A program made the position numbers and the translations under genes. From sequence record PZ386965.1: DNA of 64,000 nucleotides; one strand, 5' to 3'. The DNA comes from a phage. The notes under the pieces were generated by a model. The model did not search any database, was not told where the DNA came from, and worked only from the letters and a program-made list of their open reading frames with translations. Shown here piece by piece: positions 6,774 to 35,642 of this stretch (positions are counted from its first letter, which is position 1; each line of letters begins with the position of its first letter).

Positions 6774-7414
6774 TGAATAAACCCGAGTTACTTATTGAAA
6801 CTTGGGGTCAACCCGGTGAGATTATTGATGGCGTTCCAATGTTGGAATCTCATGATGGAAAAGATTCTGGCTTAAAACCAGGGCTTTATATAGAAGGTAT
6901 TTTTCTTCAGGCAGAGGTTGTTAACCGAAATAAACGTTTATATCCTAAACGCGTTTTGGAAAAAGCAGTAAGTGACTATATTAAAGAACAAGTCGCAACC
7001 AAACAAGCCCTTGGAGAATTAAACCATCCACCTCGTGCAAATGTTGACCCTATGCAAGCCGCTATCATTATTGAAGATATGTGGTGGAAAGGAAACGATG
7101 TATATGGACGTGCTAGAATTATTGAAGGCGACCATGGTCCCGGTGATAAATTAGCTGCTAATATACGAGCTGGTTGGATTCCAGGTGTTTCCTCTCGTGG
7201 TCTTGGTTCTTTAACCGACACCAATAAAGGGTACCGTATCGTGAACGAAGGATTTAAATTAACCGTCGGCGTAGATGCCGTATGGGGACCTTCTGCTCCA
7301 GATGCTTGGGTTACTCCTAAACAAATATCAGAATCAGAAAATTCGGTGGAAACCACCAAAAACAGTGCTGATGAAGCATTTAAAGCTCTCGCAGAGAGTT
7401 TAAAAGCATTATAA
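6773..7414 (+). CDS. 21: prohead core protease (gp21)
   Basis: 213 aa, T4 gp21 size and position. Confidence 0.92.
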   Translation: MNKPELLIETWGQPGEIIDGVPMLESHDGKDSGLKPGLYIEGIFLQAEVVNRNKRLYPKRVLEKAVSDYIKEQVATKQALGELNHPPRANVDPMQAAIIIEDMWWKGNDVYGRARIIEGDHGPGDKLAANIRAGWIPGVSSRGLGSLTDTNKGYRIVNEGFKLTVGVDAVWGPSAPDAWVTPKQISESENSVETTKNSADEAFKALAESLKAL

Positions 7415-32988: not shown

Positions 32989-33017
32989 ATAATAACATAA
33001 CCTGTACCAAAGTAAAC
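32989..33017 (-). promoter_or_regulatory. T4-type early promoter
   Basis: GTTTAC, 17-nt spacer, TATTAT; inverted repeat TTGGTACAGGT/ACCTGTACCAA spans the element. Confidence 0.55.
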
Positions 33018-33021
33018 ATTT

Positions 33022-33393
33022 TTATTTGATTTTTGTCCACTTAGCTGAATCAATAACACCTTTTGCTTTAATCTTCTCAATTAATGACTCTGCGCGATTT
33101 CTGGCATTTTCGTACCATACAACATCTTCAGAGTAACCAGTTTCTTCATCTTCGTAAGTTTTAGAACGAATACAGCCATAAACTGTAGAATTCAGGCGGT
33201 AAATTTCACCAGTGAAAAAGTTTTCGATTTCGATATGATAACAAAAATCGTCTGAAGGGCCATCAGGAGTTGTACAATAAACCACATCACCTTGAACTGA
33301 ACGAACCATCCACTGTAACTCGTTAACAACTTGAGATTTATATCCATCATGGTCACGGCATTTAATTGTAGCATTTAAATTGATAGTGTTCAT
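33022..33393 (-). CDS. hypothetical protein (123 aa)
   Basis: Own early promoter upstream, preceded by a terminator. Confidence 0.6.
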   Translation of the reverse strand: MNTINLNATIKCRDHDGYKSQVVNELQWMVRSVQGDVVYCTTPDGPSDDFCYHIEIENFFTGEIYRLNSTVYGCIRSKTYEDEETGYSEDVVWYENARNRAESLIEKIKAKGVIDSAKWTKIK

Positions 33394-33435
33394 TTTATTC
33401 TCCGGTTGTTTTATTGATTAGGTGGTACAAGTCTA

Positions 33436-33464
33436 TAGTAACACATCCTACAGGAGAGTAAACA
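33436..33464 (-). promoter_or_regulatory. T4-type early promoter
   Basis: GTTTAC, 17-nt spacer, TACTAT. Confidence 0.55.
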
Positions 33465-33492
33465 TCTTTTTAAACTTTTTCTGCCCTAAACG

Positions 33493-33517
33493 CACAAAAG
33501 GGAGACCGAAGTCTCCC
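33493..33517 (-). terminator. terminator downstream of the small basic ORF
   Basis: GGGAGAC-UUCG-GUCUCCC then a U-run on the minus transcript. Confidence 0.7.
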
Positions 33518-33522
33518 TAAAA

Positions 33523-33702
33523 TTATGCAACAACCTTTCCAAAACGAGAAGCATCATCTCGAAGAACTGCACGTGCTCTGCGCATGATCTTCTCAACTGT
33601 TTGATTAATACGAGAGTTCGACCCACGCTTGTATCCAGCGCGTTTAGAGGTACCATCAACTTTCTTTTCAACTGCTTTCTTTGCTTTAGCTTGTTTTGCC
33701 AT
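33523..33702 (-). CDS. small highly basic protein (59 aa)
   Basis: Internal ATG gives MAKQAKAKKAVEKK..., Lys/Arg-rich; UUCG terminator directly downstream. Confidence 0.5.
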   Translation of the reverse strand: MAKQAKAKKAVEKKVDGTSKRAGYKRGSNSRINQTVEKIMRRARAVLRDDASRFGKVVA

Positions 33703-33999
33703 TATAAATTCTCTTTTAAATGAAAATGCAGGACTTATTGGCATTGCCTGCGCAAGCCCTCAAGGGGAACATAGGTTTTGGATATTTAACGACAGGATAA
33801 CCATAAACCTCGTCATCATACCAACCACGACTTAGACAGATAACCTTTTTCTGACGCGTGATAGTACAAAATACATTCAAGAGGTACACCGTAAAACTGC
33901 CGGGGTCTTAAAACTATAATGATTCGCAAATCATTAATCATACAGTTCGACGGCTCCTCGATTTTCTAGCCGCACTTAAGGTAGCGAATCACCTAAAAC

Positions 34000-34248
34000 T
34001 TATTTAAGGGTAATAACAAAATGACGTACTGCTTTACGAGCTGCAGAAGCCAAAGGCTTAGCATATTTCAGTTCATCTTTTGCTTCCAGTTCAGAGGCCA
34101 AAGCTGCCTGTACCGGGTTCAGATGTTTGAAATAACGCAGGATTTCCAGTGCTTCGGCTTCAACATCAATCGACGCGCCGTAGTTTTCGTGACCGTTATT
34201 CCATGCGTTTCGTTGCAGTTCAAGAGCGTGTTGTAATTGTTTAATCAT
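34000..34248 (-). CDS. rIII: rIII lysis inhibition accessory protein
   Basis: 82 aa, near-identical to T4 rIII. Confidence 0.95.
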   Translation of the reverse strand: MIKQLQHALELQRNAWNNGHENYGASIDVEAEALEILRYFKHLNPVQAALASELEAKDELKYAKPLASAARKAVRHFVITLK

Positions 34249-34364
34249 TTTAAATTCTCAATTCGAGATAATATTTAGTAGCCACGTTCGTCTGAATTTC
34301 ACCTTCTTTCGACAAGTCTCTCAGTTGTAGGCTACCGCTTAGAAGAGTGTTCTCTTCATATAGT

Positions 34365-34372
34365 TATTTATA
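34365..34372 (-). promoter_or_regulatory. late promoter upstream of rIII
   Basis: TATAAATA on the minus strand between gene 31 and rIII. Confidence 0.5.
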
Positions 34373-34705
34373 TCACTTATAAAGACACGGAATAGCTTTA
34401 TAGTGGCATGTTACGAATTTCTGTTTAATTTCTTTAGGTTGTTTAAGTCCCAAAGCCACAAATGGATGTGGAACATTTCGAATTTGTCCAACTGGTAGTG
34501 AAGTCAAATCACCGACTTCAACAAAACCTTCAGGAACATCAGGACCTACAGAATGAACTACACATAGTTCAGGAACTTCACCTTGAACACGTTTACCAAT
34601 CACAAGTCCTGATTCGGTAACTTCTTCATCACCTGCTTGAGCGGGTTCAGAAACCAGAATGACATATTCACCAACAGCACGAATTGGGAGTTGTACTTCA
34701 GACAT
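34373..34705 (-). CDS. 31: gp31 co-chaperonin (GroES-like)
   Basis: 110 aa, T4 gp31 size and position. Confidence 0.9.
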
Positions 34706-34735
34706 CTTATTTCCTTGTTGTTTGACGATAGATTA

Positions 34736-34762
34736 ATAATACCATACTATTCGTAAAGCATA
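34736..34762 (-). promoter_or_regulatory. MotA-dependent middle promoter for gene 31
   Basis: Minus strand TATGCTTTA MotA box, 12-nt spacer, TATTAT. Confidence 0.5.
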
Positions 34763-35059
34763 TTACATAAGAAGCAAACGTTCTACCGGAGTACCATCAA
34801 CAGAAATTACTTTATCAAGGCGGAAAGAACGCCACTGACCTAACTCGGTATCGAATGCTCGAACTGATTCACGAGGTTCATAACGAACTTCTGTTGCCGG
34901 ATTGTTATTTTCATATTTGACTTCAAGTTCATCGCGCGAAGCAAACATAGTGCGTACCTCGCCGTTAGCCTTTTCAAATACAACACAATGAACGCCTACA
35001 GACAGAATAGTTTTAATACGTTCACGAAGAACCATAGTTTCTTGTTCAGTTAAAATCAT
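34763..35059 (-). CDS. hypothetical protein (31.1/31.2 position)
   Basis: Track ORF begins at GTG; internal ATG gives 98 aa. Confidence 0.6.
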   Translation of the reverse strand: MILTEQETMVLRERIKTILSVGVHCVVFEKANGEVRTMFASRDELEVKYENNNPATEVRYEPRESVRAFDTELGQWRSFRLDKVISVDGTPVERLLLM

Positions 35060-35060
35060 A

Positions 35061-35642
35061 TTATTCACCACAAAAGTTTCGGATTTGTTCCCAATTCAGA
35101 GAACGAAGATTATTACGAGAGTACTGAATTACTTCAATACCGGCTTGTTTTAGAATGTCTGCCCAATTTTCAGGAGATCTGTCATATAATTCTGCATATA
35201 CAACCTTTTTAATACCTGACTGTGTAATAGCTTTAGTGCAATCAGGACATGGAGAAAGCGTCGTATACAACGTAGCACCTTCAATAGAATTACCTTTACG
35301 AGCTGCAAACAAAATTGCATTCAATTCCGCATGGATTTCATTATTAGCAGACCATGCACTATGAGCGGCCCGATGTTCTTTAGCCAAAACAAAATTATCC
35401 ACCCGTCCAAATGCTGTAGTGCCTTCTTTATGCCCAGCAACGATGACCGGGCTTGGTTTATTCTTCAACCAACCGTTTTCGGATGCATGTTCGCAACAGT
35501 TTGTACCACCTGAAGGAGAGCCATTATAACCTGTAGAAATAATGCGTCCATCTTTTTCAATGACGGCACCAACTTTCCATGAACAACATTTTGATTCTTG
35601 AGAAATCAGATAAGCAATCTGAAGATATGTGCTAGCTTTCAT
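35061..35642 (-). CDS. cd: dCMP deaminase
   Basis: 193 aa, same as T4 Cd; HAE and PCxxC zinc-binding deaminase motifs. Confidence 0.93.
   Translation of the reverse strand: MKASTYLQIAYLISQESKCCSWKVGAVIEKDGRIISTGYNGSPSGGTNCCEHASENGWLKNKPSPVIVAGHKEGTTAFGRVDNFVLAKEHRAAHSAWSANNEIHAELNAILFAARKGNSIEGATLYTTLSPCPDCTKAITQSGIKKVVYAELYDRSPENWADILKQAGIEVIQYSRNNLRSLNWEQIRNFCGE

Follow-up and report, generated by a model that had tools for sequence, protein, structure and literature searches.

The described RNA systems that come closest to the region considered here are the pseudoknot in the mRNA leader of bacteriophage T4 gene 32, the T4 transfer RNA (tRNA) cluster with its stable RNAs C and D, the small pseudoknot aptamers of certain riboswitches, the PeSL cassettes of T4-type phages, and the RNase III hairpins in the early genes of phage T7. 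The gene 32 leader pseudoknot is conserved among T-even phages and absent from Rfam, two traits that it shares with module M1 described below (PMC3014915, PMC10690425). According to a 2010 review, neither a riboswitch nor a trans-acting small RNA (sRNA) had been characterised in T4 (PMC3014915). The region in question is the gap between genes rIII and 30.9 of a Mosigvirus, sequence record PZ386965.1, which was analysed over a stretch of 64,000 nucleotides (nt) referred to here as the window. No paper describing an RNA, a transcript map or an sRNA at the rIII-30.9 gap was found in the literature, and a catalogue published in 2023, which lists 10,006 candidate structured RNAs from IMG/VR, is silent on the locus in its main text, although the motifs may sit in its supplementary lists (PMC10690425). 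The gap spans 297 nt at positions 33703..33999 on the minus strand, is homologous to positions 130541-130784 of the T4 sequence AF158101, and is a genuine RNA region, conserved, modular and structured, which T4 also possesses without annotation and which holds new RNA motifs. It contains no conserved open reading frame (ORF), is conserved above the level of the neighbouring genes, and shows covariation that is specific to the transcribed strand; its modules are mutually independent, and M1 is restricted to phages and occurs as a single copy in the window. It seems probable, at roughly 0.6, that the gap represents a co-transcribed array of autonomous functional RNA modules combined with local translational control of 30.9.

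The same gap is present in about 778 GenBank records of T-even phages, including T4, where the interval from the end of rIII (130785) to the start of 30.9 (130540) carries no annotation. When the Mosigvirus and T4 sequences are compared, the aligned gap is 95.9% identical, as against 85.9% for rIII (66% at third codon positions), 89.5% for gene 31, 83% for the 31-rIII spacer and 66% for the 30.9-30.8 spacer, and the differences within the gap consist mostly of clean block insertions and deletions. A wider sample was assembled from 40 rIII-anchored IMG/VR loci (rIII 65-100% identical), 39 loci anchored on 30.9 and several GenBank records. In the loci bearing 30.9 the gap is always there, with a length of 120-416 nt and in 44 distinct versions, which share a limited set of modules whose order, number and identity vary by phage. 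The order in the window is M5, M6, M7, M1, M3 and M4, followed by a U-rich tail and the 30.9 ribosome-binding site; T4 lacks M7, ime09 has a shortened M6, and in more distant genera M1 stands first after rIII or is placed after M3 or M2. A search with the 4227 models of Rfam 15 at permissive E values returned no relevant match in 33000-34700, the hits being at chance level outside the gap or far below gathering scores, and six related loci searched against Rfam at permissive thresholds likewise gave nothing relevant.

M1 (33774..33814, minus strand, like all genes and modules located below) is predicted to form an H-type pseudoknot and is found in every examined relative that has 30.9. Its first helix, P1, joins GACGAGG (33808-33814) to CCUGUC (33791-33796), and its second, P2, joins the loop sequence GGUU (33799-33802) to a downstream AACC (33774-33777). 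A near-invariant A-rich linker, GUUAAAUAUCCAA, occupies 33778-33790, the near-invariant form between P1 and P2 being CGUUAAAUAUCCAAAAC. In 32 distinct M1 sequences aligned to a covariance model, 78.8% of the cells are paired, compared with 36-56% (at most 55.9%) when the 3-prime partners are slid; the cells with double changes number 46, compared with no more than 20 in the slid controls, and none of 500 shuffles reaches the observed values. Two P1 pairs vary as UA18/AU13/GC1 and CG22/GC6/UA4 with zero mismatches, and the central pseudoknot pair varies as GC22/AU6/GU4. P2, whose pairing was scored in a fixed register, reaches 6-9 base pairs (bp) in other lineages, where its sequences differ (UGUGAG/CUCACA, UUGGUU/AACCAA and UUGGUAGUU/AACUGCUAA).

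The M1 covariance model matches the 64-kb window exactly once, at 33766-33820, with 73 bits. Beyond the window, IMG/VR, the JGI metagenomes and 185,579 bacterial genomes were scanned with M1 patterns, followed by model scoring. A degenerate pattern of 15 bases returned mostly chance matches; one of 18 bases returned T4-like contigs only, apart from a single further contig, L064, and a chance family of matches in coding sequences. No genuine M1 copy emerged from these pattern scans and model scoring of the 185,579 bacterial genomes, and the genuine copies found are confined to T4-like contigs with the one exception of L064 (IMGVR_UViG_3300020045_002265, 55 kb). This contig comes from a phage unrelated to T4, with terminase, portal and HNH genes nearby. 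At 6797-6854, M1 alone makes up the whole 58-nt spacer from tRNA-Asp to tRNA-Pro in a cluster of 12 tRNAs, and its 91% identity to the T4-like copies of L025 and L027 suggests that an RNA module of roughly 50 nt was transferred horizontally. In a BLAST search of the tRNA-M1-tRNA segment against GenBank phages, only the tRNAs found matches. A weak M1-like pseudoknot (27.8 bits, E about 0.007, linker GUUAAAUA...AAAAC) was also seen at 6315-6368 of L114, an unrelated low-GC phage, between the scaffold and major capsid genes and directly past a terminator-like hairpin; it may be a chance match and is not relied on here.

The remaining modules show a comparable preservation of pairing. M5 (33968..33994) is a small hairpin with a CGC/GCG stem and a conserved 10-nt loop, UACCUUAAGU; its 3 stem pairs are 100% paired, with CG/UG/AU/UA and GC/AU/GU variation. 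An upstream GGUG may pair with UACC in the loop, which would give a further pseudoknot (GGUG/UACC in some phages and AGUG/UACU in others, mismatched in T4). M6 (33878..33960) is an 83-nt bulged hairpin in which 24 pairs are formed in 99% of cells across 17 distinct sequences. Its changes preserve pairing in the series GC/GU/AU, CG/UA, UG/UA/CG, AU/UG and UA/CG, two G-U pairs are invariant, and in natural deletion variants (ime09, L035) the distal part is exactly removed and a closed hairpin remains. M7 (33818..33867), an optional hairpin absent from T4, has 16 pairs that are 92.9% paired; its inner stem is CAGA/UCUG here and CAGC/GCUG elsewhere, and in L025 the whole outer stem has been replaced with pairing kept. 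M3 (33753..33770) is a mini-hairpin of the form GUWCCC-loop-GGGCUUG that recurs at module boundaries, a truncated copy, GUACCUCUUGA, closing M6. As read from the sequences, its stem of 3-4 bp changes by lineage (CCC/GGG, CCUC/GAGG, GCU/AGC, GCC/GGC) between conserved flanks GUA...CUUG; RNAalifold does not call a stem this short.

M4 (33728..33751) is a terminal hairpin with a conserved loop, GCAGG-CAAUGCCAAUAAGU-CCUGC, whose 6 pairs are 100% paired, with GC/AU and AU/GU/UA variation and GCAGG/CCUGC in some phages versus AACUGG/CCAGUU in others. An alternative fold joining M3 and M4, in which AGGGCUUG pairs with UAAGUCCU, was proposed by RNAalifold for close relatives and was rejected; it is not conserved in distant lineages, while the M4 stem covaries. 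After M4 come the U-rich tail, AUUUUCAUUU, and a hairpin over the 30.9 Shine-Dalgarno sequence (together 33703..33727), in which UUUUC (33722-33726) faces GAGAA (33709-33713). Judged as an intrinsic terminator, M4 with the U-rich tail would be weak at best, having a 5-bp stem, a 14-nt loop, -5.4 kcal/mol and an interrupted U-tract. The covering of the 30.9 Shine-Dalgarno sequence by a hairpin is probable across the sample and weakly indicated within the T4/Mosigvirus group; such a hairpin can be drawn just before the 30.9 ATG in all lineages, with differing sequences (UCUCC/GGAAGA in most of the distant genera, CCUC/GAGG in L219).

The sequence-only reading of this DNA had pointed to two inverted repeats in the gap, and both are present. 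The repeat GCAGG...CCTGC corresponds to the covarying M4 stem. As a structure, GATTCGC/GCGAATC did not hold up: T4 has GATTCAC, which introduces an A-C mismatch, some relatives have no GATTCGC partner, and GCGAATC instead belongs to the apical loop and stem of the inner hairpin of M6, TAATGATT-tgcg-AATCATTA (33917-33936). The same reading had offered a structured non-coding RNA among its explanations and proposed covariance analysis across related phages. That analysis revealed covarying pairs in the modules on the transcribed strand, and the proposal now has strong backing from a gap more conserved than its flanking genes, from compensatory changes and from many G-U pairs.

In many other phages the slot of M7 is filled by an unrelated module of about 140 nt, M2 (CGGCAAGUGCAUGCUACC...GCUAACGGUGUGCAACAGAUAAGAG), which lies in their rIII-30.9 gap and is absent from the window. 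It is found at about 940-1090 of L007 (Pu-Krd-SF5) and also in L009, L018, L020, L024, L026, L028-L031, L033, L034, L036-L041, L043 and L219. Altogether 407 GenBank records of Straboviridae contain it, most at 90% identity or more, from phages of Klebsiella, Escherichia, Enterobacter, Yersinia, Serratia, Edwardsiella and other hosts. The predicted fold has several helices, with 37 pairs (98.6% paired), many compensatory changes and a GNRA-type hairpin. M2 has no match in Rfam, and the records either leave it unannotated or overlay it with 'hypothetical protein' calls. The 5-prime part of M2, GCUACCCCGAGGUGAUGGCUAAUCGGGAG, resembles M5 together with the start of M6, GCUACCUUAAGUGCGGCUAGAAAAUCGAGGAG (33940-33994 in the window), and the search pattern for M5 also caught M2; the two may be distantly related, or the resemblance may be a coincidence.

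On the opposite strand the numerous G-U pairs would turn into A-C mismatches, which places the structures in the sense RNA and not in the DNA or an antisense transcript. This observation bears on the proposal that the region acts at the DNA level, as a replication origin, a recombination hotspot or an array of protein-binding sites. Such a role could be read from the module shuffling and from a rearrangement at a 13-nt repeat in phage PD06, which show frequent recombination here, and from the label 'ori type 2 repeat' given to a 10-mer of this region in the ATK47 record. The A-C mismatches would, however, arise in a cruciform as well, and what covariation preserves is RNA pairing of the transcribed strand. 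No T4 replication origin is known to map to the gap. A DNA-level element is thus considered very improbable.

A further proposal holds that the modules are punctuation of the mRNA, namely RNase III, RNase E or RegB sites and protective hairpins that uncouple and stabilise the rIII and 30.9 parts of the transcript with no sequence-specific partner, on the model of the RNase III hairpins in the early genes of T7. Several features agree with it: M6 is a long, nearly perfect hairpin, stable hairpins are separated by AU-rich single-stranded linkers, M6 carries a RegB-type GGAG, and natural isolates are viable with modules deleted or swapped. Generic stabilisers, however, need no conserved loops, linkers or bulges, and here these are conserved like the stems (the M1 linker, the M4 loop, the M5 loop); nuclease sites do not require a pseudoknot maintained by covariation; and M1 is kept in a tRNA operon where there is no mRNA to stabilise. 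Generic punctuation is inadequate, because it leaves unexplained both the sequence conservation of loops and linkers and the presence of a covarying pseudoknot in a tRNA operon, and we regard it as unlikely to be the whole account. The GGAG in question lies in the basal stem of M6 (33954-33957), is kept in nearly all M6 copies and is of the sequence type cut by the T4 endoribonuclease RegB; T4 has a second GGAG, in M5. The product of rIII, the gene immediately upstream of the gap, has been reported to inhibit RegB activation via ribosomal protein S1 (PMC9409239).

The relation of the array to 30.9 is central to a different explanation, in which the whole gap would be a cis-acting 5-prime leader or operator of 30.9, with gp30.9 binding M1 and repressing its own synthesis, much as T4 gp32 and the leaders of ribosomal-protein genes work, or with M1 serving as a riboswitch for 30.9. 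Across relatives, gp30.9 is a very basic protein of 53-61 amino acids (aa) assigned to phrog_1427, with invariant K, R and Y residues, and sequence searches of Pfam and PDB returned nothing significant for it. The basic character and the invariant residues would suit an RNA-binding regulator of this kind, as would the compact pseudoknot form of M1, which is typical of small aptamers. M1 lies upstream of 30.9 at every evaluable 30.9 locus, and 30.9 has never been seen without M1. The T4-like phage in L042 (163 kb) presents a joint loss, in that rIII gives way at 1726-2177 to a strong terminator, then a promoter of early type and an unrelated ORF of 78 aa, with the RNA array and 30.9 both absent; this looks like a cassette replacement. 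A long regulated 5-prime leader had also been among the explanations offered by the sequence-only reading, and one part of that idea stands, namely the Shine-Dalgarno hairpin that precedes the 30.9 ATG in every lineage in spite of differing sequences.

The upstream modules behave otherwise, changing their order and distance and persisting where 30.9 is lost. Between M1 and the 30.9 ATG lie roughly 60 to over 250 nt that include other modules and hairpins, and within the array M1 may come first or last. Several settings show M1 in the absence of 30.9. In a Yersinia TG1-like phage (L032, 1750-1900), M3-M1-M5 and an M7-like terminal hairpin are kept, and an unrelated frame replaces 30.9 after about 13 codons. 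In PD06 (149.5 kb; L046/L047, about 1380-1710), a fusion joins the final 28 codons of rIII to M5-M6-M1-M3-M4 and to the Shine-Dalgarno sequence and ATG of 30.9; the array survives here without 30.9, embedded in a tRNA cluster between tRNA-Gly and tRNA-Gln; the segment is bounded by a 13-nt direct repeat, TTTATTGGAGATT, which is also the 5-prime end of tRNA-Gln, and the arrangement looks like the result of repeat-mediated transposition or deletion. In L064, finally, two tRNA genes flank a solitary M1, and the 12.5 kb of this contig that were analysed contain no 30.9. M1 varies in its distance from the 30.9 ribosome-binding site and in its order with respect to it, so that neither a classic riboswitch nor an operator of the gene 32 type fits it, and no riboswitch family was matched. 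A purely cis-acting leader or operator is, in our view, rather unlikely.

Whether the gap conceals a protein-coding gene was considered from the ORFs themselves. ORFs of at least 60 aa in six frames cover 96.8% of the window, and 33836-33999 is the sole uncovered stretch of at least 150 nt in the 64 kb; this confirms the gap and makes it the most extreme one of the window. Within the 297 nt, no ORF of at least 60 aa is found on the transcribed strand, in agreement with the original description of an ORF-free region of some 300 nt in a tightly packed genome. Smaller frames on the minus strand comprise a 41-aa ORF starting with ATG (33816-33941), a 57-aa ORF starting with GTG (33716-33889), a 22-aa ORF starting with GTG inside the gap, and an extension that would lengthen 30.9 upstream by 14 codons in frame, with its start at 33744. 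None of the ORFs of the gap is conserved in frame among relatives, and neither the 41-aa nor the 57-aa ORF has a family in PHROGs. The ATG of the 41-aa ORF is a substitution private to this phage among those aligned (GTATG here versus GTCTG/GTTTG in relatives), three 1-nt indels and several block indels separate the gap from that of T4, and the extension of 30.9 is broken by a 1-nt deletion in close relatives. Coding is ruled out by these one-base and block indels, which break every frame.

A hidden or decayed protein gene, whether a 30.x gene that was lost or a small ORF like that of 41 codons, has in its favour a few GenBank records that annotate short hypothetical coding sequences in the gap (G53_00216 and one in a T2 record). 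The same ORF-free gap is found, however, in T4 and about 780 relatives, without a PHROG match, and no homologous phage has a coding gene across it. The earlier suggestion that the gap might be the remains of a deleted gene is contradicted by these observations, and a gene of either kind is scarcely credible. Both the G53_00216 call and that in the T2 record are placed inside structured RNA.

The wider locus resembles that of T4. This part of the window shows 99% identity to coliphages of the genus Mosigvirus, among them G53, JK45 and mar005P1, and the minus strand carries all genes here, in the T4 order. They comprise cd (35061-35642), 31.1 (between cd and gene 31), gene 31 (34373-34705), rIII, which encodes the lysis inhibition accessory protein and is the upstream cistron of the rIII-30.9 transcript (34000..34248), and 30.9, the downstream cistron of 59 aa (33523..33702), which is the small basic protein of the sequence-only reading. 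A late promoter box of T4 type, TATAAATA (34365-34372, minus strand), lies upstream of rIII just after gene 31. The rIII-30.9 unit ends in a strong terminator hairpin, GGGAGAC-TTCG-GTCTCCC followed by TTTT (33496..33517, minus strand), annotated as such in the G53 and ATK47 records, and 30.8 and 30.7 lie beyond it. An early-type promoter (about 33435-33463) is seen only past this terminator, and the layout of transcription signals in the window agrees with the T4 annotation. A consensus scan, insensitive by nature, found in the gap neither a promoter-like pair of hexamers nor GTTTAC-N17-TAnnnT; it called no terminator in 33000-34800, yet also missed the obvious one after 30.9. As the late promoter box is upstream of rIII, the early-type promoter lies only past the terminator and none is seen in the gap, the gap would be the intercistronic part of the rIII-30.9 transcript, and judging from the T4 promoter annotation it is probably transcribed within the rIII mRNA. 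The naming of 30.9 is inconsistent across GenBank records matching 33523-33999, which give '1,4-alpha-glucan branching enzyme GH-13', '11.1 kDa protein' or a 72-aa extended start; the '11.1 kDa protein' label stems from an old 97-aa ORF D in X17657.

Taken as an array of autonomous RNA modules, the gap would work as follows. Promoters upstream of rIII would drive its transcription, and the unit would stop at the strong terminator past 30.9. The gap RNA would fold into the row M5, M6, M7, M1, M3, M4, each member self-contained. The modules would be independent and exchangeable units, each retaining its own sequence and pairing while order, number and identity change, and each would have its own specific partner. 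M1, at roughly 45 nt, would be no passive spacer but an autonomous functional element that a protein or a small ligand recognises. M4, the U-rich tail and the Shine-Dalgarno hairpin would act in cis and limit gp30.9 expression. In functional terms, the modules presumably work in complex with a protein or a ligand, or are released from the transcript by processing, and the Shine-Dalgarno hairpin probably lowers the translation of 30.9.

Several observations weigh against this interpretation. The folding energy of the single sense-strand sequence is no better than that of shuffled sequences (z = -0.11), so that thermodynamics alone would have dismissed the region. Most of the covariation comes from related phages, and because these sequences are related the compensatory changes are not independent events. 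Recent recombination could account for part of the high identity between genera. In the lineage of the window P2 has just 4 bp, and a rival helix of AGGUUU with AAACCU competes with it, while the autonomy of M1 outside T4-like phages rests on one contig. Classical labelling studies, moreover, are reported to have assigned every abundant stable RNA of low molecular weight in T4 to the tRNA cluster, which disfavours abundant processed RNAs from the gap. In a bolder version, the gap of T-even phages, T4 among them, would be an island of trans-acting small RNAs (M1, and M2 in more than 400 other Straboviridae) that are excised from the rIII transcript and bind or mimic conserved host components. 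Such RNAs could be decoys against host nucleases or defence systems, or hijackers of factors for translation or RNA processing, and gp30.9 could be their protein partner; we hold this version to be speculative and, on balance, improbable.

The array of autonomous modules would have consequences that extend beyond the present phage. T4 is among the most thoroughly studied phages, yet a stretch of 244-300 nt that is better conserved than the neighbouring genes stands unannotated in it and in hundreds of relatives, and this stretch swaps modules in the manner of accessory genes. If the modules have specific partners, they would represent a new layer of T-even biology, concerned with the timing of lysis inhibition, with the small basic protein, or with host takeover and defence; if the trans-acting version is true, T4 would have in them its first functional non-coding RNAs that act in trans and lie outside the tRNA cluster. 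The analysis also supplies objects that can be tested, in the form of defined deletions, a 45-nt pseudoknot and a 140-nt RNA, and it corrects annotation where records carry spurious small coding sequences, a start of 30.9 placed too far upstream, or one of the labels 'glycogen branching enzyme' and '11.1 kDa protein'.

The closest known systems are best regarded as analogies, since those of their defining features that were tested, beyond the presence of an H-type pseudoknot in a leader, were not found at this locus. Like M1, the gene 32 element is an H-type pseudoknot (supported in M1 by covariation in P1 and P2) within the leader of a T-even mRNA, followed downstream by an AU-rich stretch and by a gene whose product is of nucleic-acid-binding type. 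Unlike the gene 32 operator, M1 has no sequence similarity to it and no fixed distance from or contiguity with the ribosome-binding site; it outlasts the downstream gene, being kept without 30.9 in L032, PD06 and L064, and it occurs in a tRNA operon. The small pseudoknot aptamers of the preQ1-I, SAM-II and SAM/SAH riboswitches are of similar size and design to M1, at about 45 nt, with a hairpin loop that pairs with the 3-prime tail and an A-rich invariant linker, which in those aptamers lies in a helix groove. M1 differs from them in having no expression platform at a fixed adjacent position and in its unrelated genomic context, and RF00522 and all riboswitch models of Rfam gave no match at E up to 10. 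The RNase III hairpins of T7 early genes recall M6, both being long bulged intercistronic hairpins in polycistronic phage mRNA; unlike them, the modules have loops and linkers of conserved sequence, and most fall below the length that RNase III needs.

The T4 tRNA cluster with its stable RNAs C and D (species 1 and 2) offers a likeness at the level of organisation, as strings of small, independently folded, co-transcribed RNAs without ORFs. Unlike that cluster, the array lies inside an mRNA between two protein genes. Searches of the modules against rnaC and rnaD with blastn-short gave only chance matches of 9-12 nt, the M1 model had no match in the T4 tRNA region (L171), and ARAGORN found no tRNA in the window or in L007, L038, L032, L022 and L044, and no transfer-messenger RNA in the window. 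The likeness extends to location in two relatives, with M1 between tRNA genes in L064 and the PD06 array embedded in a tRNA cluster. The PeSL cassettes (Arbiol 2010; Comeau 2014), each an early promoter with a terminator-like stem-loop, differ in that the modules of the gap have no promoter consensus, are larger and are conserved as covarying RNA structures. Like those cassettes, the modules are short conserved non-coding units that are shuffled in a modular way in plastic regions of T4-type genomes, and the rearrangement in PD06 resembles a mini-circle or repeat-mediated transposition (PMC2839356, PMC4122927).

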